Positions 6,890-53,432 of a stretch of 57,715 bases of DNA are shown piece after piece. A model generated the notes under the pieces. The model did no database searches, had not been told where the DNA came from, and worked only from the letters and a program-made list of their open reading frames with translations. The position numbers and the translations under genes were made by a program. Numbering within the stretch: the stretch's first letter is position 1; the number at the start of each line of letters is the position of its first letter. This DNA is from Candidatus Elulimicrobium sp. (GTDB taxonomy: Bacteria > Omnitrophota > Gorgyraeia > Zapsychrales > Fredricksoniimonadaceae): the NCBI GenBank assembly GCA_020720365.1, contig DYOU01000007.1, positions 1 to 57,715 on the forward strand, given 5' to 3'.

Positions 6890-7273
6890 GTGATGAGTAC
6901 GATGACGGGTTTGATGATGGTGTGCGTGATGGCAGGAGTGATTCTTGTGGGGTGTGCGCAAAAGACTGTTGCAGATAATGCGACGCAGGTTATTGAACAG
7001 TCCAAGGCTCAGGGGCCGGTGGAAGCTCAGGCTAATTTCCTGATGGAACAGGCCAATGCGTTAGTCTCTAGTAAGAACTACCAGGAAGCGATGAATGTGG
7101 CTCATTATGTGATCGCTAATTTTAAGGACAAAGCGCCTGAAGCTCAAAAATTACTCCAGGATATTCAGGTCAATGTTCAGCAGATGTTTCAGGAAAAGAT
7201 GGGAACTGTCAAAAAAGACGTGGGTGCTGCCGCTAAAGATCTCAATAAGACACTCGGTTCTTTTGGGAAATAA
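6890..7273 (+). CDS. Hypothetical helical lipoprotein
   Basis: Lipobox ILVG-C after a hydrophobic leader, followed by a helical, TPR-like body. RBS AAGGAG. Confidence 0.7.
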   Translation: MMSTMTGLMMVCVMAGVILVGCAQKTVADNATQVIEQSKAQGPVEAQANFLMEQANALVSSKNYQEAMNVAHYVIANFKDKAPEAQKLLQDIQVNVQQMFQEKMGTVKKDVGAAAKDLNKTLGSFGK

Positions 7274-7330
7274 GGTTTGTTAATTCCAGGAATGAATAGT
7301 ATTTCTAAACTGTAAAAAGGAGAGGAAGGT

Positions 7331-8080
7331 ATGCATCGGATGATAAAGAAAATATTAGGTGTATGTTTCTTTATTTTTTTAAGTGTGGGGATACTGGAGG
7401 GGAATGCGTATGCCGCTGAAGGCCAGTGGATAGGGAATGTCTTTGCCGGGTATGATCAGAGCAACGGGAACACGAAGAAGGGTGCGGCAACACTTTCAGC
7501 GCAGGCTGAAAAGAAAGTTGGAGTGAATGCTTTTTTGTTGAAAGGGAATACATCTTACTCATCGACGAACAGTAAGATGGATGGCCAGAAATGGGATGCT
7601 TTGGGTAAATATTCTTATAATTTTGGTCATGAGAATAAATGGTTTAATTTTTATCAGATCTCTGCGGATCATGATCGCTTCTCTGACATCAAATACAGAC
7701 TTACTCCGAGTATCGGTATTGGTTATCATATCGCGGCTTCTGATGAGTGGGCCTGGGATGCTGACGCGGGTTTGGGTTACAGGATCACCCGTCATAATGT
7801 TAATAAAGCCAAGGATGATGAAGTCTTGACAGGTTTGTTACATACGTTTATGAAAAAGAGTATTTTTGAAAAGTCCTATCTTTCAGAAGATCTCACGGTT
7901 TATCCGGGGTTTGAGAGTGATGCGGGTGTTCTTGTGCGTTCGGAGACAGTATTTACCAATCCGCTGTCAGCCAAGATGGATCTTCAGCTGAAGTATATTG
8001 TGGATCATGACACTGAAGCGGCAGAAGGAAAGAAAAAGACCGATACGCGTTTTATCGCCGGTTTGAAATATAACTTTTAA
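7331..8080 (+). CDS. DUF481/YdiY-family outer-membrane beta-barrel
   Basis: Signal peptide, W.G....GY.QSNGNT, DHDRFSDIKYRL..SIGIGY, and C-terminal aromatic BAM signal GLKYNF. Confidence 0.85.
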   Translation: MHRMIKKILGVCFFIFLSVGILEGNAYAAEGQWIGNVFAGYDQSNGNTKKGAATLSAQAEKKVGVNAFLLKGNTSYSSTNSKMDGQKWDALGKYSYNFGHENKWFNFYQISADHDRFSDIKYRLTPSIGIGYHIAASDEWAWDADAGLGYRITRHNVNKAKDDEVLTGLLHTFMKKSIFEKSYLSEDLTVYPGFESDAGVLVRSETVFTNPLSAKMDLQLKYIVDHDTEAAEGKKKTDTRFIAGLKYNF

Positions 8081-8101
8081 TGACTTTCAGGGAGATTAGT
8101 T

Positions 8102-8503
8102 ATGACCATCATTCAGGAATTTAAAGCGTTTGCTTTACGCGGCAATATTATCGATATGGCTGTGGGTATTATTATTGGAGCAGGGTTCGGGAAGATCGTC
8201 GACTCTGCGGTGAAAGATATTTTAATGCCGCCGCTTGGTTATATTGTTGGCGGTATTGATTTCAGTAATCTGGAGATCGTTCTTCGAAGTGCTGGTTTAA
8301 CAACTCCAGCGGTAACGATCAAATACGGTTTGTTCCTGAACGCTATGATAAGTTTCACGATCGTGGCGTTTGCTGTATTCATGCTGATCCGCGGGATCAG
8401 TGCTTTACAGAAGAAAGAAACGGCGGCGCCGAGTGTTCCGCCTCAGCCGAGTAACCAGGAGATCCTTCTGGCTGAAATCCGGGACCTGTTAAAGAGAAAA
8501 TAA
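8102..8503 (+). CDS. mscL: Large-conductance mechanosensitive channel
   Basis: EFKAFALRGNIIDMAVGIIIG, IKYGLFL and EILLAEIRDLLK. Confidence 0.97.
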   Translation: MTIIQEFKAFALRGNIIDMAVGIIIGAGFGKIVDSAVKDILMPPLGYIVGGIDFSNLEIVLRSAGLTTPAVTIKYGLFLNAMISFTIVAFAVFMLIRGISALQKKETAAPSVPPQPSNQEILLAEIRDLLKRK

Positions 8504-15234: not shown

Positions 15235-16887
15235 ATGTCTGAAAATAAAGTAATGAAATTGGGTGAAGTTCTTCTGGAAGAAGGCTTGGTCACTCATCAG
15301 CAGTTGATGCACGTGCTACAGTTGCAAAAAGGAAATCCCCGCAAGATAGGGGAGATATTTGTTGATGAAGGGATCATTACGGATCAGCAGTTGTCGCAGG
15401 TTCTCGCCCGGATCTTTCAGCTTCCTTTTGTTTCTTTAACGGATATTACTATTGACGATAAGGTTCTCGGGCTTGTTGCTTTTGATGTTCTTAAGCGGAA
15501 CAAGATGCTCCCGTTCGAACTGAATGGTACTTCCCTGAAAGTCGCTACCAGTAATCCTTTGGATGTTACCGCTTTGCAAGAGATCCAGTATATGAGCGGG
15601 TTCCAGGTTAATCCTGTTGTGGCCGGAGCGAAGGATATCAAGGATAATCTTGACAAGTACTCGTCGGCGATAACCGCGGCGGCCGCGATCAAGATCGGGA
15701 TCGATTCTTCTGTGGATGCCACGCCGATCATCAAGCTGGTGGAGTCTCTCATCGGACGGGCGATCAAAGAACGCGCTTCGGATATCCACCTTGAACCACT
15801 GGCATCGGTTATGCGCGTACGCTTTCGTATTGACGGTGTCCTTTATGAAAAGACGCCGATCGCCAAGAATCTTGAGCGTAAAGTCCTTTCTCGTATCAAG
15901 ATCCTGTCGGGGATGGATGTGGCGGATTCCCGCCGGCCTCAGGATGGGCGTTTGTCGATGCCAGCCCAGTTTTCCGAATATGATCTGCGTGTTTCCACTC
16001 TTCCGGATATTATGGGTGAGAATATGGCCTTGCGTATCCTGGACAAATCATTCACCAAATTCTCTTTTGATACGCTCGGGATGAGCGAGGCGGAAGTAGA
16101 GATTATTCAGAAGATCATTAAACGGCCTTACGGGATCATTCTGGTCACCGGGCCGACAGGCGCGGGTAAGACGACGACCCTTTATTCAATGTTGAACGGC
16201 CTGAATACTCCCACAAGAAATATTATTACCGTTGAAGATCCTGTTGAGTACAAGCTTGCCGGGATCAGCCAGACCGCGATCAATGTGCGGTCAGGGTATA
16301 CTTTTGCAACGGCTATACGCCATATGTTGCGGCATGATCCGAATGTTATTATGATCGGGGAGATCAGGGATCAGGAGACAGCGGATATCGCTATTCGTGC
16401 GGCTTTAACCGGGCATTTGGTCCTATCTACCTTGCATACCAATACAGCGGCGGGCGCTATCATGCGCCTGCTCGATATGGGGATCGAGCCGTTTTTGATA
16501 CAATCATCGATCATTGCCGTTATTGCCCAGAGGCTTGTGCGCCGTTTATGCCCTCATTGCAAGAAAGAATATGTGGTCTCTCCGGAAGTGCGCGAACGAA
16601 TCGCACAGGATTGTCCTGTGCCGGAAGAGCTCAAGTTGGCCGAGCCAGTGGGCTGTGATCAGTGTGTTTCTACCGGCTATATGGGACGGAAGGCTGTTTA
16701 CGAATTGCTTCAGGTGAATGAGGGTATTCGTAATTTGATCCTCAAGTCTCCCAGTGAACATGATATTTCACAGGCAGCGCGTGCGCAGGGTATGAAGACA
16801 TTACGTCAGGCGGGCCTTGCGAAGGCGGTTGATCTTACGACTTCATTAGCCGAGGTCATGGGTATAACATTTATGGAAGGTGATTAA
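15235..16887 (+). CDS. pilB: Type IV pilus assembly ATPase PilB/GspE with MshEN-like N-domain
   Basis: ASDIHLEP, RPQDGR, Walker A GPTGAGKTTT, TVEDPVEY, RHDPNVIMIGEIRD, LTGHLVLSTLHTN and CPHC..CDQC zinc motif. Confidence 0.92.
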   Translation: MSENKVMKLGEVLLEEGLVTHQQLMHVLQLQKGNPRKIGEIFVDEGIITDQQLSQVLARIFQLPFVSLTDITIDDKVLGLVAFDVLKRNKMLPFELNGTSLKVATSNPLDVTALQEIQYMSGFQVNPVVAGAKDIKDNLDKYSSAITAAAAIKIGIDSSVDATPIIKLVESLIGRAIKERASDIHLEPLASVMRVRFRIDGVLYEKTPIAKNLERKVLSRIKILSGMDVADSRRPQDGRLSMPAQFSEYDLRVSTLPDIMGENMALRILDKSFTKFSFDTLGMSEAEVEIIQKIIKRPYGIILVTGPTGAGKTTTLYSMLNGLNTPTRNIITVEDPVEYKLAGISQTAINVRSGYTFATAIRHMLRHDPNVIMIGEIRDQETADIAIRAALTGHLVLSTLHTNTAAGAIMRLLDMGIEPFLIQSSIIAVIAQRLVRRLCPHCKKEYVVSPEVRERIAQDCPVPEELKLAEPVGCDQCVSTGYMGRKAVYELLQVNEGIRNLILKSPSEHDISQAARAQGMKTLRQAGLAKAVDLTTSLAEVMGITFMEGD

Positions 16888-46027: not shown

Positions 46028-46057
46028 TTGACATATATAGCGTTCCGGGAGTATAGT
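46028..46057 (+). promoter_or_regulatory. Putative sigma70 promoter of the chemosensory cluster
   Basis: TTGACA, 18 nt, TATAGT. Confidence 0.55.
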
Positions 46058-46094: not shown

Positions 46095-47018
46095 ATGAGC
46101 TCTGAGCATCGTTCCAACATTCTTCTTGAAGCTCAAACCAGTGAGCTGGAGATCGTTGAATTCTCTGTAGGGGAAGCGGTGTACGGTATTAATGTGGCCA
46201 AGGTGAAAGAGATCATTAAGGCCAGTTTAACGCTTGTTCAGGTGCCTGATGCTCATCCGTCGATTGCGGGTGCCATTAATTTGCGCGGTGCTATTATTCC
46301 AGTTGTAGACCTGTCCCATCATTTAAAGATAAAAACAATCGCAGACCTTAAAAAGAGCCGGATCATTATTGCCGAGTTTAATCGTATTGTATTGGGATTT
46401 TTAGTGAGCGGTGTGGCCCGAATTCACCGGATCTCTTGGAAATCGGTTGAAGTGCCGTCTCAAATGCTGGTTACAACGGAAGGTTATGCTTCAGGGATTG
46501 TTCGAATTGAAAAGAAAGTTATTTTTCTTCTGGATTTTGAAAAGATTGCATTCCATATTAATCCGAATGTTCATATCCTTTCTCCGAAAGGAGGGGAGTA
46601 TGGCGGGTCTTCTGTTGACCGCGGGTCAAAGCGGATCCTGGTGGTCGATGATTCGGATCTGGTGCGTAAGCTGATCGTGGGGCATTTGAATTCGGCAGGG
46701 TATCAAACGGATACCGCTACAAATGGGGTAGAGGCATTGGATAAACTACAAACCTTCGCCGGACGTTCTGATTTTACGTCGATCGATCAGTTTTATCATT
46801 TGATGGTAACGGATATTGAAATGCCTCAGATGGATGGACTTCATCTGATCAAAAAGGTGAAAGAAGATGTCAAATTGCGAAACTTGCCGTGTATTGCTTT
46901 TTCGTCAATTATGTCGAAAGAAATGATCCGTCAATGTCAGTCTTGTGGAGCTGATGGAGAAATATCCAAGCCTGAGATCGCAGAACTGGTCGGACTTGTG
47001 GATGCGAAGGCGTTATAA
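46095..47018 (+). CDS. cheV: Chemotaxis protein CheV (CheW + receiver)
   Basis: ILLE...ELEIVEF, YGINVAKVKEI, LRG.IIPVVDL and receiver VDDS..VTDIEMPQMDG..FSS..SKP. Confidence 0.92.
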   Translation: MSSEHRSNILLEAQTSELEIVEFSVGEAVYGINVAKVKEIIKASLTLVQVPDAHPSIAGAINLRGAIIPVVDLSHHLKIKTIADLKKSRIIIAEFNRIVLGFLVSGVARIHRISWKSVEVPSQMLVTTEGYASGIVRIEKKVIFLLDFEKIAFHINPNVHILSPKGGEYGGSSVDRGSKRILVVDDSDLVRKLIVGHLNSAGYQTDTATNGVEALDKLQTFAGRSDFTSIDQFYHLMVTDIEMPQMDGLHLIKKVKEDVKLRNLPCIAFSSIMSKEMIRQCQSCGADGEISKPEIAELVGLVDAKAL

Positions 47019-47068
47019 ATTTTGCCTCAAATGGATTTTTTTAATAACAGATGAACAGAGGGGGTAGC

Positions 47069-48760
47069 ATGCTGGATAATATTCAAATAGGGGTAAAGCT
47101 TATCGCAGGTTTTTTGTTAGTGGCCTTGATTGCGCTTTGTGTGGGTGTCATCGGTTATTATGGAATGTCCGTTATTTCTAATCAGTTAAAGTTTGTTGGC
47201 ATTGACAAAGTTTCTGACATTGAGGCATTGGGGGATTTGAATGAACAGCAAATGGCAATACGAGTAGGAACATTGAGTGTTTATCAGTATGAATTTAAAG
47301 ACAGCGCTCAGGAAGATTTTCGCAGAATTATCGAGGCTCGTCAGGAGAGTTGGAAGATTGTTGATGATGCCTGGAAGCGGTTGATTGAAGTCCCCAGAGA
47401 CGATCAGAAGGAACGGGATTTGATCCAGCGATTAAAAGGTGAATATGAAGCGTGGCGGGCTGCTTATGTAAGGCTTGACGCGAGTATTCTTGAATTGACA
47501 TCAACCACCGCTGATAATAAAAAGGCTGTTTTTGAGAAATACCGTTTGCAGGTCAAGGAAATGATCCATTTGTCGGAGGCCATGGGGAAGACTTTGGATG
47601 AGGTAACAGTGAATAATGCAGCAGCGACAAAGAATCTGGTTGAAAAAAATCTTGCGGCGATGGTTCGGTTGAAGTTGATTCTTGTGGTTTCCATTATTAT
47701 GGGGCTATTTTTGTCAATTATGTTTGGTTTTTATTTCAGTGGATCTATTACGGGTCCTATGGCTTCGAGCGTGAGGGTGATGGAGTCAATGGCCGGTGGA
47801 GATTTAACGCAGAGGCTGGATATGAATCGTGCGGATGAAATTGGTGTGATGGCAAAAACAATGGATACTTTTTCTGACAAGTTATCCAGTATGATGGGAC
47901 AGATCAGTTTGAATGCGGATCAGCTTTTGGGGGCGACCCATGAAGTATCTTCGAGCTCTCAGCAGATCGCTGACGGGGCTCAACAGCAGTCAGCTTCGTT
48001 TGAAGAGTTGTCTTCTTCAGTACAGGCGAATGCCGAAAATGCCCGGAGTGCGAATGGGATCGCCCAGGACGCGTCCAAGGAAGCTCAGGAAGCGGGTCAG
48101 GCTATGGACAATACAGTAGAGGCTATCAGCGGTATTGAGAAGGGTTCAAAGCAGATGGCAGATGCTGTTGAATTGATCACGGATATCGCGGATCAGACGA
48201 ATCTTTTAGCGTTGAATGCGGCTATTGAAGCGGCGCGTGCCGGTGAGCATGGCAAGGGCTTCGCGGTTGTCGCGGATGAAGTCCGTCAGCTGGCTGAGCG
48301 CAGTTCTACATCGGCTAAAGAGATCCAGAATCTGATCAAGGATAATTTGAGGCAGGTTGAGAATGGTGTCAAGATCTCAAAAGAAGCCGGAGCGAAGACT
48401 AAAAATATTTCTGTCAGTATCAAGAAGATCGCTGAACAGTTGATCGCTGTAGCTAATGCTACTCAGGAGCAGGCCGCGGCCATGGAAGAAAATACATCTA
48501 TTACAGAATCCAACGCGTCTGCCGCTGAACAGCTGGCATCTGCCTCTGAACAGATGACGTCCCAGGCGGAAGGTTTGCGTAACCTTGTAGCGCAGTTCAG
48601 GACCAATTCCTCGGGTGCATCTTTTCATGCGGCTCCGGCGGTTGAAAAACGTACGAGTCATTCGACTCCTGTGAAGAAAACAGCCCCTGTGGTTAAGAAG
48701 AGCGGGAGGCCTATAGAGAGATCGGGTAGTAATAAAGAAGAAGGCTTAAGGATCGGATAA
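47069..48760 (+). CDS. Methyl-accepting chemotaxis protein (4HB sensor, HAMP)
   Basis: Two TM helices, GDLTQR..DEIG HAMP and [34 protein letters not shown]. Confidence 0.95.
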
Positions 48761-48779
48761 TCGTATTGAGGGAGGGAGC

Positions 48780-49169
48780 ATGGAACGTCGTCAATACATG
48801 AGGGTAAGCGGGAAGCATCTGGTGCGGCATGAGCAGTTCACTATCCCGAGGGGTACGGAGGTTCGGGAAAACAGGGCCAAAAATATCAGTGCGAACGGAC
48901 TTTTGTTTGAGTCATCCGTAAAATATAATATGGGTGTTATTCTTCGGCTGGAGCTTCTGGTCATGGGGATTAACAAGTTCAAGACAGAATTCTATAAACA
49001 TGAACGGCTTTCTAATACAGAGCCGTTCATTGTTTTAGGGAAAGTGGTCCGTGTAGAAATGGTCTATGAGGGGCTTTATGATATTGGGGTGAGTTTAGTG
49101 GGATTGGATTATTTATTCCAGAAGGCTCTCACAAAATATATTGATCATCAATTAAATCAGAATCCCTGA
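48780..49169 (+). CDS. PilZ domain protein
   Basis: ERRQYMR, NISANG, GKVVRV and YDIGV. Confidence 0.85.
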   Translation: MERRQYMRVSGKHLVRHEQFTIPRGTEVRENRAKNISANGLLFESSVKYNMGVILRLELLVMGINKFKTEFYKHERLSNTEPFIVLGKVVRVEMVYEGLYDIGVSLVGLDYLFQKALTKYIDHQLNQNP

Positions 49170-49179
49170 GGGTTGGTTT

Positions 49180-49983
49180 ATGAGTGAGCAAGCGATAGAC
49201 AAGAAAAATGGGCCGGAAGGCAGCTTTGATCGTGTTATTCAGTTGATCAGCGAGTGTGTTGTGATCAAAGCCCAGTTACAGCAGTTCATGAGTGACCTGG
49301 ATGGGGAGAAACAGAAATCACGCGCAGTCACTTTAAAAATGAACGAGATCGTTCAAGGTCTTCAGAATGTCCAGAAGGGTGTGGATATTCAAAAGATTTT
49401 AGGGCTGGTGCTGAAGGATTCGGAGGGTTTATATGAAGTCCTTCATTCAAGTCGTTTAGGACCGGTGATCGTCTCTATGGATGAAGCTGTGGCCCGCTTC
49501 AGTAAGGTAATGGGGGATCTTCAGCATGAGTTGGTGACTATGGATCTTGGGGCATCGGCTATTTCTATTATGCAGGTGCTTTTGGTCAAGATCGATGGTG
49601 AGATCTATGCTATTCCGATCGAGGCGGTGTTGGAGATATTCAAGGTGAAAAAGAATGATATTCATTCTGTAGACGGAAATGACACGGTTTCCTTGCGCGG
49701 GCATGCGTTGGGTGTGGTAAATGTCGGACAGGTTTTAGGAATGCCGAATGCCAAAACGAAAGACCTGGTAGACCGTAAGGTGGTTGTTATTACGGATTCG
49801 GCACAACAAATCGGTGTGATCGTGGATGAATTGTTGGGAGAGGAAAGTGTGGTCTTCAAGGATCTTCCTGTGCAGTTAAGGGGGATGAAAGGGCTTCGCG
49901 GGGCATCTATTTTAGGCGATGGGCGTGTGGGACTTATCATTGATTCGGCCATGCTGATCAGTATGGCTGGCGGCAAGGAGTGA
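49180..49983 (+). CDS. Truncated CheA-like protein (P3 dimerisation + P5 only)
   Basis: FDRVIQLISECVVIKAQL..FSKVMGDLQHELVTM (P3-like) joins to ISIMQVLLVK..YAIP..GASILGDGRVGLIID (P5). No HPt or ATPase motifs. Confidence 0.8.
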   Translation: MSEQAIDKKNGPEGSFDRVIQLISECVVIKAQLQQFMSDLDGEKQKSRAVTLKMNEIVQGLQNVQKGVDIQKILGLVLKDSEGLYEVLHSSRLGPVIVSMDEAVARFSKVMGDLQHELVTMDLGASAISIMQVLLVKIDGEIYAIPIEAVLEIFKVKKNDIHSVDGNDTVSLRGHALGVVNVGQVLGMPNAKTKDLVDRKVVVITDSAQQIGVIVDELLGEESVVFKDLPVQLRGMKGLRGASILGDGRVGLIIDSAMLISMAGGKE

Positions 49984-49985
49984 CC

Positions 49986-50489
49986 ATGGCGACAGGTATA
50001 TCAGGGGTCTCAAAAGAGAATTCGATCGAGATTGTTCAGTTCGTTTGCTTTAAATTGGCGAATGAGGAATACGGGATCGATATTAACTGTGTGCAGGAAG
50101 TCCTTCGGCCGCAACAGATCACGCCTATGCCGCAAATGCCGGATTTTGTTTTAGGTGTGATGAACATTCGAGGGATCGTTGTGCCGGTATTTGATCTGCG
50201 TAGAAAATTGCATCTGGCGATGAAAGAGCTGGATGATTACAGCCGGATCATCCTGATCCAGTTAAACGGGGTCATGGGCAGTTATCTGGTTGATGAAGTG
50301 CTGGACAACATCAAGCTGGATGGATCCAAGATCGATCCAACGCCGGATGTTAAAATGTCGATCGCCAGGGATTGTGTGCGCGGGCTGGGAATGGTGGATA
50401 AACGTATCATTGTGATCATTGATCATCAGACAGTTGATGCATCTATATTAAAAGATATTCAGGAAAAACTGGTTTCTAAGCGGGGATGA
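49986..50489 (+). CDS. cheW: Chemotaxis protein CheW
   Basis: QFVCFKLANEEYGIDI..VQEV and GVMNIRG.VVPVFDLR. Confidence 0.92.
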   Translation: MATGISGVSKENSIEIVQFVCFKLANEEYGIDINCVQEVLRPQQITPMPQMPDFVLGVMNIRGIVVPVFDLRRKLHLAMKELDDYSRIILIQLNGVMGSYLVDEVLDNIKLDGSKIDPTPDVKMSIARDCVRGLGMVDKRIIVIIDHQTVDASILKDIQEKLVSKRG

Positions 50490-50493
50490 ATGT

Positions 50494-50964
50494 ATGGAAG
50501 ATCAGGACAAGTTCTTTCATCTGGTAACATTTGAAATGAACAAGGAAATGTTTGCGATCCCGATCATGAATATTCAGGAGATCATTCGCTGGACGGCCGT
50601 TGTTCCGATCCCGCAGTCTCCGGATTTCGTTGAAGGCGTGATTAATTTACGCAGTAAAGTGATCCCTGTAGTCAGTTTACAGAAGAGGTTTGCTTCCGCT
50701 TCTTTGAAAGGGGCGGTCGATGACAAGACGCGTATTGTGATCGCTGAATTTGGAGAGTTGGTCGTGGGTTTTATTGTGGACAGCGTGCACGAGGTGCTGA
50801 GGATCGATCGAAAGAATTTTGAGCCGACACCGGATATCGCTGTTGTGGCTGACCGCAGATGCGTGAAAGGGATCGTTAAGCAGGACAAAAGCATGATCAT
50901 GGTCCTTGACCTGGAGGGCATGTTCTCCAAGGACGAAGCGGATATCCTCAAAGACGCCCGTTAG
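50494..50964 (+). CDS. cheW: Chemotaxis protein CheW
   Basis: LVTFEM..E.FAIPI..IQEI, EGVINLRSKVIPVV and GFIVDSV.EV. Confidence 0.92.
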   Translation: MEDQDKFFHLVTFEMNKEMFAIPIMNIQEIIRWTAVVPIPQSPDFVEGVINLRSKVIPVVSLQKRFASASLKGAVDDKTRIVIAEFGELVVGFIVDSVHEVLRIDRKNFEPTPDIAVVADRRCVKGIVKQDKSMIMVLDLEGMFSKDEADILKDAR

Positions 50965-51680: not shown

Positions 51681-53432
51681 ATGCCGTCTTACCATATGAT
51701 CGATAATAAAATTATTATTCAGATGCATGAGAATATCTGCGATACAGCAGCCGAGATCCTTGATAGTGATCTTTTTAATGGGATCGTGACCGCCGCTTTT
51801 CAGAAATTGAGCCGGAGGAATTCTATTTTACTGGATGTATTCAGCCGTAGGGATGTTGGCCCGCAAGAGATCCGGGAGTTTATTGAAACATTAAAACTTT
51901 TGATCAAGATGCCGACCGCGCAGGCCCGGCAGGCTTCAGCTTCAGCCGATACTCTATTGAGAAATGTTTCTCATTTTAATGATCTTATTGAATATTTATA
52001 TAATTTCTGGCGCAGTTTTGACCGGTTTATTATTACGGATCAGAAGCAGTGTCAGGACTGTGATAAGAAACCTTATCGCACTTTTAATTTAACGATCGGT
52101 CATTTGACCAATCTGATCCGTGGAATGTACCGGGATATCCAGGAAAATGTTACCGGTCAACATCCGCGCATTTATCGTCAGGTAGCGGCGGGCGGTGAAG
52201 TCGCGACGATCGCTGTCAAGCAATCCGTTCCTCTGCCGCCAGAATATGCCGAGTTGAACAAGATCCCTATGATCCGTCAGATGCTTCTTTATCCTCCGTT
52301 GATCCTTCAGCCGTCAATGAATAAACGGACCGGGCGGATCGAGCCGGTAGGAGAAAGCCCTATCAAAGGTTTAACTTTTCATTCAGCTGACTGGTTATGC
52401 TATCCGGCGAAAGTAGGAGAGCTTGTTATTTTGGTATATTTTCATAATGCTTATGCCGAGTTAGGGCATTCGTTGTGTAATTTGTTTGAGATGGCAAGTG
52501 ATGAAGATCTGAAGCGTCAGCCTGATGGGGTGTATGCTTATGGCGTTCCGCCGGAATCATTAGATCGGTTCAAGAGCGGGCAGGTGTTTTATGATGATCA
52601 GCAGAATAATATTCTTGTTGCGGCGATCCCTTTGAAGTTGGAGTTCGGATATTTTGGTTATGTAAAGAAAATGATCCTGACGTTACATAACGTGATTATG
52701 ATGAAGCGCGGGCGGCTGCCTTTTCATGGGGCGATGGTGCGTTTGATCCTGAAAGGGGATATTGACCGCAATCTTTTATTTATTGGTGATACCGGGGCGG
52801 GAAAATCCGAGACGCTTGAAGCCCTGCGCGGGATCGGGGGAGATGTTATTCAGGATCTCATTATTATTGCCGACGACATGGGGTCTATTCAGTTGGAGAG
52901 TAATGGAGATGTGCTTGGTTATGGAACCGAGATCGGGGCATTCTTGCGCCTGGATGACCTTCAGCCTGGATATGCTCTGGGCCAGATTGATCGTGCGATC
53001 ATTATGAGCGCGAATCAGGTGAATGCCCGGATCATTATCCCTGTGACGACTTTTGAGAATATCATTAAGGGGCAAAAGATCGATTTTGTCTTGTACGCCA
53101 ACAATTATGACGGTATCGACGATGATCATCCGATCCTTGAAAGATTCAAGACTCCGGAGGCGGCTATGGCTGTTTTTCGTGAAGGAACGGCGATGAGCAA
53201 AGGGACCACAACGTCAACGGGGTTGAATCATTCGTATTATGCGAATGTATTCGGACCGGCTCAGTTCAAGGAAATGCATGAACCTTTGGCGAAGAAGTAT
53301 TTCGAAGCTTTTTTTAACAAGAATATTTTCGTAGGGCAGATGCGCAGTCGTTTGGGTCTTGAAGGTTGGGAGCGTAAAGGCCCTGAGGAAGCGGCCAAAG
53401 AACTTTTACGTGTTATTCAGAACAAGGTTTGA
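51681..53432 (+). CDS. Divergent PEP-carboxykinase-like P-loop protein
   Basis: YFGYVKKM, LPFHGAMV, GDTGAGKSETLE and IIADDMG parallel the PEPCK K/H/Walker A/DD motifs. The N-terminal region differs from PckA. Confidence 0.7.
   Translation: MPSYHMIDNKIIIQMHENICDTAAEILDSDLFNGIVTAAFQKLSRRNSILLDVFSRRDVGPQEIREFIETLKLLIKMPTAQARQASASADTLLRNVSHFNDLIEYLYNFWRSFDRFIITDQKQCQDCDKKPYRTFNLTIGHLTNLIRGMYRDIQENVTGQHPRIYRQVAAGGEVATIAVKQSVPLPPEYAELNKIPMIRQMLLYPPLILQPSMNKRTGRIEPVGESPIKGLTFHSADWLCYPAKVGELVILVYFHNAYAELGHSLCNLFEMASDEDLKRQPDGVYAYGVPPESLDRFKSGQVFYDDQQNNILVAAIPLKLEFGYFGYVKKMILTLHNVIMMKRGRLPFHGAMVRLILKGDIDRNLLFIGDTGAGKSETLEALRGIGGDVIQDLIIIADDMGSIQLESNGDVLGYGTEIGAFLRLDDLQPGYALGQIDRAIIMSANQVNARIIIPVTTFENIIKGQKIDFVLYANNYDGIDDDHPILERFKTPEAAMAVFREGTAMSKGTTTSTGLNHSYYANVFGPAQFKEMHEPLAKKYFEAFFNKNIFVGQMRSRLGLEGWERKGPEEAAKELLRVIQNKV

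Follow-up and report, generated by a model that had tools for sequence, protein, structure and literature searches.

In their survey of CheA homologues, Berry et al. 2023 report HATPase_c in every protein examined and give P1, P3, P4 and P5 as the core of CheA (PMC10782961; this and the other papers cited here were available to us in part). The same source describes two unusual CheAs in Rhodobacter sphaeroides, CheA3, which cannot bind ATP, sits in arrays via P5 and has degenerate P3 and P4 within its long linker, and CheA4, which is without P1. CheA has further been called the 'structural staple' of the baseplate, a structure in which ParP and CheV are non-kinase parts (PMC7534058) and in which multi-domain CheW.II and CheW.III proteins are also listed as non-kinase components (bioRxiv 10.1101/2022.05.07.491037). 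Vass et al. name two CheA architectures without HATPase_c, CheA.XI and CheA.XII, termed 'split' CheAs, and leave out architectures represented by fewer than 40 sequences (bioRxiv 10.1101/2022.05.07.491035). In this study, we characterized a gene in a 57,715-nucleotide stretch of DNA from the Omnitrophota bacterium Candidatus Elulimicrobium sp. (contig DYOU01000007.1, positions 1 to 57,715; hereafter the window) whose predicted product is a CheA derivative that consists of P3 and P5 and is without P1, P2 and P4. We refer to it as the P3-P5 protein. No description of a natural P3-P5-only protein was found in the available portions of the literature; Vass et al. may list a rare H-kinase_dim plus CheW architecture.

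The open reading frame (ORF) is unbroken over 267 residues. Pfam places a CheW-like domain at residues 132-261 (81.9 bits) and a borderline H-kinase_dim match at residues 17-67 (23.9 bits against a cut-off of 23), and the same scan gave no HATPase_c, Hpt or P2 match in the protein. Among NCBIfam models the protein matches those of CheA only, over their last 130-140 positions, unlike both downstream neighbours, which match the CheW model. A profile built from 10 family members and searched against PDB sequences aligned residues 11-40 with P3 helix 1, residues 98-125 with P3 helix 2 and residues 129-261 with P5 (E 7e-32) of Thermotoga maritima CheA delta-289 (1B3Q/3JA6), passing over 184 P4 residues, and matched the elongated P3 of Treponema denticola CheA (6Y1Y_A) over residues 13-125 (E 9e-5). 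An alignment of 61 rows (A2) brings together P3-P5 proteins and CheAs from their lineage; in it the protein follows the equally long P3 of these CheAs colinearly throughout. It then passes from '...ELVTMDL' to 'GASAISIMQVL', where the CheAs read '...QTRM', P4 and 'PLTLAIIQAL', so that the approximately 183 P4 columns of the CheAs fall between its residues 123 and 124; these columns are gapped in all 16 proteins of this architecture that we collected.

Structure prediction gave the same division. The AlphaFold2 model computed from the 61-row alignment has a mean pLDDT (predicted local distance difference test) of 89.6, with helices at residues 13-65, 70-89 and 93-121 (pLDDT 80-95), a beta domain at 129-263 and a fall to 68 at the linker residues 122-128; it supersedes a model from a 10-row alignment, whose mean was 52 and whose P5 part lay below 50. 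The best Foldseek match of the model is a CheA P5 chain, 4jpb_A (E 3.5e-15, root-mean-square deviation 1.5 A, 34% identity, TM (template modelling) score 0.92 normalised to the target). CheA P5 chains matched at E 1e-12 to 1e-15 and 30-34% identity, and CheW chains lower, at E 1e-9 to 6e-7 and 17-24% identity; for the N-terminal part the match is 6y1y_B (E 2e-3, probability 1.00, 23% identity). Since four independent results concur (the PDB profile, the 6Y1Y match, the 61-row alignment, and AlphaFold2 with Foldseek), we assign the N-terminal half as a CheA P3. Its canonical helices lie at approximately 13-40 and 98-121, preceded by about 12 residues, and a tip insertion of about 57 residues extends the coiled coil; the step from P3 to P5 is a linker of about 7 residues (MDLGASA). 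A sequence-only reading of the locus had proposed an uninterrupted frame in which P3 patterns are joined to a CheA-type P5 by DLGASA (residues 122-127) with P1, P2 and P4 absent, and profile, alignment, model and fold search all bear this out.

How the protein should be classed follows from its parts. Of the features of CheA, P3 and P5 were found, and the Hpt domain of P1 and the N, G1, F and G2 boxes of P4 were not; by the definition of Berry et al. the protein is not a CheA, because two of the four core domains are gone. Nor is it a CheW, which is a lone CheW-type domain: a P3 of 125 residues precedes its domain, which is of P5 type. Like the CheAs of T. maritima (1B3Q/3JA6) and Escherichia coli (6S1K), it has the P3 helices and P5 in the same order, with CheA P5 as its best match in sequence and fold; unlike them, it has about 7 residues in place of P4 and the L3 and L4 linkers and has neither P1 nor P2, and therefore neither autophosphorylation nor phosphotransfer is possible. 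The long tip insertion recalls T. denticola CheA, whose isolated P3 is the 6Y1Y structure; its two canonical helices are connected by some 50 additional residues, which prolong the coiled coil (Muok et al. 2020, PMC7666581). In that species, however, the long P3 belongs to a full kinase, whereas here it belongs to a kinase-less protein, at 23% identity. R. sphaeroides CheA3 is likewise a natural, P5-bearing protein of CheA lineage that is unable to bind ATP, but it retains P1 as the phospho-acceptor for CheA4, whereas the P3-P5 protein has no Hpt and can take no part in phosphotransfer. ParP of Vibrio, CheV and CheW.II/III resemble it, as far as the accessible parts of those sources go, in combining a CheW-like domain in the baseplate with a second part that has a structural or tethering role. 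ParP differs in that its CheW-like domain is no P5 and its other domain binds ParC, in place of a CheA P3 joined to a CheA-type P5.

The architecture recurs. The 16 proteins are 236-291 aa long and form about five clusters at 50% identity. Seven proteins of 264-291 aa matched the window protein at 41-66% identity over at least 93% of the query, among the best 120 of 145 matches with E <=0.001. In a library of 1.84 billion representatives, five short P3-P5 proteins (P0001, P0123, P0124, P0125, P0158) stood among the best 150 matches, and the remaining listed matches were longer proteins or fragments in which P5 was the best-matching stretch. Full-length matches were found in 2 of 40 related genomes (G012 and G019); in nine others the match was confined to the P5 of a long CheA frame, one of these frames being cut by a contig end and carrying a G2 box. 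Across 91 loci from genome and metagenome contigs, 93 frames had a P5-type match: six are P3-P5 genes (L017, L022, L023, L025, L096, L097), in 79, P5 is preceded by more than 200 residues, a further six run off the end of a contig, and the last two are a CheW and a frameshifted CheA. The four named records among the six P3-P5 loci are all Omnitrophota metagenome-assembled genomes (MAGs). On one metagenome contig (L102:3028-4400), P3 and P4-P5 of a cheA lie in different, overlapping frames, through a frameshift or a sequencing error.

To describe what has been kept, we used as reference the positions on which at least 80% of 45 lineage CheAs agree. The window protein retains 40 of the 62 CheA-conserved P5 columns; the mean retention is 69% in its own subgroup of P3-P5 proteins and 87% in the other. 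The 'IPLTL' segment, which leads from P4 into P5, is gone in 16 of 16. Because the P5 columns are kept and 'IPLTL' is lost, the docking domain looks functional in these alignments and the elements that couple P5 to a kinase domain are gone.

The rest of the genome (198 contigs, 85.7% complete) supplies the setting in which such a protein would act. A full CheA, which the sequence-only reading had considered as one that might lie elsewhere, is indeed encoded on contig C47; it is 970 aa long, contains two stretches of Hpt as well as P2, P3, P4 and P5, and belongs to a complete operon of the order cheX-REC-cheW-cheV-pilZ-cheR-cheB-cheA-cheD-cheC-cheY. The CheV, the first CheW (cheW-a) and the PilZ-domain protein encoded beside the P3-P5 gene are 65%, 48% and 39% identical to their C47 counterparts, and we therefore regard the window as carrying a second, paralogous set of putative scaffold parts. 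The genome has four methyl-accepting chemotaxis proteins (MCPs), whose cytoplasmic domains align without any indel and whose tips are identical; a distinct length class for the local MCP, suspected from Pfam envelope lengths, was rejected on this alignment. Receptors of equal length share an array, according to the accessible part of a review of Vibrio cholerae (PMC7534058), and given the equal length and identical tips nothing in the receptors would bar the P3-P5 protein from the array of the real CheA. The local MCP is 65% identical to that of contig C58, which precedes a second, truncated P3-P5 gene of the other subgroup (L002:1330-1644, minus strand). This 104-aa ORF, 3' of its MCP, is 79% identical to P0121 over its first 56 residues and divergent beyond, and lies beside a gene for a large serine recombinase, part of which is masked. 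E-x-LRI(G/V/S/A) forms the C-terminus of all four MCPs (window 48740-48760; C58, C111, C185) and of the MCPs in L022 and G019, always behind a basic tail of low complexity; this terminal motif may tether an adaptation enzyme or another partner.

We consider it somewhat probable (about 0.6) that the P3-P5 protein forms a P3-mediated dimer whose P5 domains take CheA positions in the baseplate rings, where it adds links or recruits its own MCP and dilutes the kinase. The protein would dimerise through P3, and its two P5 domains would join the CheV and the two CheWs encoded alongside it in the P5/CheW rings beneath the receptor tips. Such a dimer would link adjacent receptor trimers as a CheA dimer does, minus the kinase: a 'staple without an engine'. 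Identical tips and the equal cytoplasmic length of the four MCPs suggest that these arrays would be shared with the full CheA from the other contig, in which case the protein would provide extra structural links or draw in the MCP encoded next to it, leaving fewer kinases per receptor. Several points weigh against this proposal. The window protein retains just 7 of the 23 CheA-conserved P3 columns, and the hairpin may pair unlike a canonical P3 or have another partner. A linker of 7 residues replaces a whole domain, and the reach of P5 to the ring with P3 lying between receptors is putative. What the sequences establish is the domain composition and its recurrence, purifying selection, the genomic neighbourhood and a full CheA gene; the dimerisation, the binding to CheW and MCP and the very expression of the protein are predictions, and array incorporation and the effect on signalling, like dimerisation, are what we infer. 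A complex prediction for two copies, made with the 61-row alignment, scored 0.36 against a mark of 0.42, with controls at 0.00, and is not used here as evidence. The cluster is absent from four genomes of the same genus, and its function is therefore dispensable. Finally, a search of the 85.7%-complete genome found no FliG (FliG_C), flagellin (Flagellin_N) or FlhA (FHIPEP), and the chemosensory system may not drive flagella.

A different outcome would follow if the P3 of this protein paired with that of the full CheA. E. coli CheA autophosphorylates in trans. A heterodimer would hold one P4 and one P1, both in the same subunit, and if autophosphorylation here were also in trans, each P3-P5 subunit would silence one kinase subunit held in the array. 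That a full CheA with an equally elongated P3 is encoded in the same genome, and that the P3-P5 gene of L025 shares an operon with a full cheA, lend support to such a dominant-negative role. For the window copy, however, we regard it as doubtful. Its P3 is 14% identical to that of the resident C47 CheA (about 20% in the canonical helices), outside the range found between CheAs of the lineage (median 37%, range 22-66%), and from this the evidence leans to a scaffold over a dominant-negative protein, the two roles that the sequence-only reading had put forward. Many P3 core positions have been replaced in a manner that resembles insulation, not pairing, and the gene is accompanied by a CheV, CheW and MCP set of its own, not by cheA. 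Dominance over the kinase appears more plausible for the second subgroup (P0121, L022, L025 and others), whose P3 is 32-41% identical to that of C47 CheA (helix 1, 45-65%) and so falls within the range between CheAs. The same divergence of the P3 core would also suit an adaptor like ParP, for which the accessible part of the review provides the precedent (PMC7534058), with P5 in the baseplate and the diverged hairpin binding another partner, such as a polar anchor, the PilZ protein or the pilus machinery. A PilZ gene lies directly 5' of the P3-P5 gene here and in L096 and L097 and is present in L022 and L016, and the genome, in which no flagellar markers were found, has 10 T2SSE-type (PilB/PilT-like) ATPase genes above the family cut-off, one of them in the window at 15712-16860. 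Against this, the hairpin is still colinear with P3 and with the 6Y1Y dimerisation domain, the main operon has a PilZ gene without a P3-P5 gene, and G019 has a P3-P5 gene without a PilZ gene; we think an adaptor of this kind unlikely.

It must also be asked whether the gene is a functionless remnant of a duplicated cheA, or an assembly artefact in which P4 was lost. The C58 copy in the same genome is genuinely truncated after about 56 residues, beside a serine recombinase gene, and the absence of the cluster from same-genus genomes also fits such an origin. The junction itself (approximately 49540-49570) was examined over 48700-50600 in Logan contigs from three other assemblies, that is, in contigs and not in raw reads: X2 record 6 (49139-49931), X3 record 9 (49275-49931) and X1 record 4 (48866-50600) all cross it free of indels or joints, and with 0-1 differences. 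X1 is possibly the source sample, X3 is of the same study as X1, and X2 names no study. A misassembly, which the sequence-only reading had named as an objection together with a full-length cheA at this place in close relatives, thus finds no support at the level of contigs. Close relatives likewise offer no full-length cheA here: the four same-genus genomes (completeness 93, 74, 92 and 86%) gave no full-length P3-P5 protein match, and at the DNA level they matched 46095-50964 only in the conserved MCP tip and in one stretch of 75 nt. In the three of them where both flanking genes, prfC and a 583-aa gene, were matched, these lie 12-19 kb apart on opposite strands. On these comparisons the whole cluster is accessory within the genus. 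The ratio of non-synonymous to synonymous change (omega) was estimated by the method of Nei and Gojobori, more distant pairs being saturated at synonymous sites. It is 0.046 for L096/L097 (23 synonymous and 4 non-synonymous differences) and 0.079 for L005/L022 (N-terminal half 0.094, C-terminal half 0.066). Judged by these values, both halves of the protein are under purifying selection, and orthologues that share the deletion under such constraint, which the sequence-only reading had proposed to look for, exist. With the length kept across all 16 proteins as well, decay or artefact is a highly improbable explanation of the window gene.

With regard to origin, a P5 tree of 80 rows, inferred by a quick method from just 141 columns, splits the 16 proteins into two groups. 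Eleven, including the window protein (support 91 in the Shimodaira-Hasegawa-like approximate likelihood ratio test, SH-aLRT), stand next to P0009 and P0154 (SH-aLRT 80), and the other five (P0121, P0122, P0124, L022, L025; SH-aLRT 100) stand next to the C47 CheA and P0127 (SH-aLRT 87). The free tree requires two changes of architecture; a single P3-P5 clade was not rejected by the approximately unbiased test (p 0.389), and the common CheV-MCP context favours a single origin. P0009 and P0154 fall within a set of P1-less proteins of 372-465 aa, several of which have decayed P4 motifs. P0009 reads 'EPLIMMVEDAIVNG' at the site where CheA has 'DPLTHMIRNAxDHG', a decayed N box, and has no recognisable G2 box; P0135, P0140 and P0154 have no Pfam HATPase_c match, and P0010 and P0141 retain all four P4 boxes. 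These Omnitrophota paralogues (P0009, P0135, P0140, P0154), of which no description was found in the papers searched, share the long P3 and the P5 type of the window protein but, unlike it, keep a stretch of 180-220 residues at the P4 site. P0156 and P0167, from Omnitrophota-like lineages, are also P1-less CheA paralogues with decayed or unrecognisable P4 motifs. One Omnitrophota MAG, L016, has a 421-aa ORF (7152-8417) with the same Pfam scores as P0009, set in the order mcp-cheW-cheW-pilZ-mcp-X; the parts are the same as those of the window cluster. That P1-less, P4-decayed paralogues occupy the same kind of cluster suggests a stepwise loss, in which a cheA paralogue of an accessory cluster would have shed P1, then the catalytic residues and then P4, the order being our reconstruction. 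Such a series is the simplest reading, and P3 and P5 would have stayed under selection throughout.

The gene lies in a cluster of six genes, cheV-mcp-pilZ-P3P5-cheW-cheW, all on the plus strand and separated by 2-32 nt (Table 1). No kinase, CheY, CheB or CheR was found in it by Pfam. It is an accessory scaffold and receptor module and not a full pathway, and the description of an intact-looking chemosensory operon given by the sequence-only reading was, for want of these four components, too generous. The tight coupling to cheW that the same reading had noted holds: the stop codon TGA of the P3-P5 gene occupies 49981-49983, the sequence AAGGAG (49975-49980) precedes the cheW-a ATG by 6 nt, and an alternative GTG start of cheW-a at 49980 overlaps the stop. 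At the other end, the stop of the PilZ gene is followed by GAGGG and then by the ATG of the P3-P5 gene. RRQYMR (residues 3-8) and NISANG (residues 35-40), which may correspond to the c-di-GMP (cyclic di-GMP) binding motifs RxxxR and (D/N)xSxxG, are readable in the PilZ protein, whose Pfam match is barely over the cut-off. The first CheW is also 52% identical to CheW1 of L016. Scans for promoters and terminators were not above chance (9 promoter-like sites where chance predicts 9.4, and 6 terminator-like sites where it predicts 5.2), and an 11/12 promoter match at 46028-46057, 5' of cheV, is a lead only. Downstream of the cluster, the 583-aa flanking protein (51681-53432) has a weak match to phosphoenolpyruvate carboxykinase-like proteins (PEPCK; Pfam E 0.0099, NCBIfam 1.5e-4), and its gene is 72-74% identical in DNA in 4 of 4 same-genus genomes. 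The GC skew is positive in all 2-kb bins of window positions 1-56000 (0.13-0.32), and the cumulative skew climbs steadily.

Table 1. Genes of the cluster and parts of the P3-P5 protein, in positions of the window
Feature	Positions	Strand	Remarks
cheV (CheW-like and receiver domains)	46095..47018	+	First gene of the cluster; Pfam CheW 110.5 bits, Response_reg 69.8 bits
MCP (4HB (four-helix bundle) sensor, HAMP, MCP signalling domain)	47051..48760	+	Pfam
Small PilZ-domain protein, putative c-di-GMP receptor	48780..49169	+	Pfam PilZ 22.8 bits against a cut-off of 22.5
P3-P5 gene	49180..49983	+	267 aa, stop codon included; predicted kinase-less CheA derivative
Elongated P3 dimerisation hairpin (predicted)	49216..49542	+	Residues 13-121; profile, AlphaFold2, Foldseek, lineage alignment
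Linker	49543..49563	+	Residues 122-128 (DLGASAI region); site of P4 and the L3/L4 linkers in CheAs
CheA-type P5 (CheW-like) domain	49564..49968	+	Residues 129-263; Pfam, PDB profile, Foldseek
cheW-a	49986..50489	+	Pfam CheW 110.7 bits; translationally coupled to the P3-P5 gene
cheW-b (second, divergent CheW)	50494..50964	+	Pfam CheW 129.8 bits; 33% identical to cheW-a

An association of the P3-P5 gene with MCP and with CheV or CheW recurs across loci. The order is cheV-pilZ-mcp-P3P5 in L022 and cheV-mcp-P3P5-tetR in G019, which has no PilZ gene; in L096 and L097 it is pilZ-P3P5. In L025 the P3-P5 gene lies between cheW and a short MCP gene at the end of a full che operon, the CheA of which has 888 aa. 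In genome G012 (L005), an ORF cut by the contig start (2-340) lies just 5' of the P3-P5 gene, begins like a P3 helix (LLRVRSQYAQL...) and may be what is left of a further gene with a P3; 3' of the P3-P5 gene lies a transposase-like ORF.

A broader proposal, which we put forward as speculation of low probability, is that Omnitrophota have evolved a dedicated, kinase-free 'core unit'. In such a unit, P3-P5 dimers would enter the lattice of the true CheA with a CheV, two CheWs, an MCP and a PilZ c-di-GMP receptor of their own; responding to c-di-GMP, they would tune the number of kinases per receptor or silence whole patches of the array, and in lineages with a CheA-like P3 they would act through dead heterodimers with CheA. 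If true, the series from full CheA through P1-less CheA and pseudokinase to P3-P5 would be a natural dissection of the structural and the catalytic role of CheA.

Altogether, the sequences of these uncultured bacteria point to what would be a clean natural split of the structural from the catalytic role of CheA, with an evolutionary series behind it, and the related pseudokinase forms supply the path. The association with PilZ, together with a genome that yielded no flagellar markers, hints that chemosensory arrays may serve non-flagellar outputs. The two jobs of CheA, catalysis and the stapling of the lattice, are hard to separate by experiment, given that removal of CheA abolishes both, and the P3-P5 protein would be a ready reagent for setting kinase density against lattice connectivity and cooperativity. 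That a natural protein with the stapling parts alone has been kept by selection suggests that the structural job is valuable by itself.

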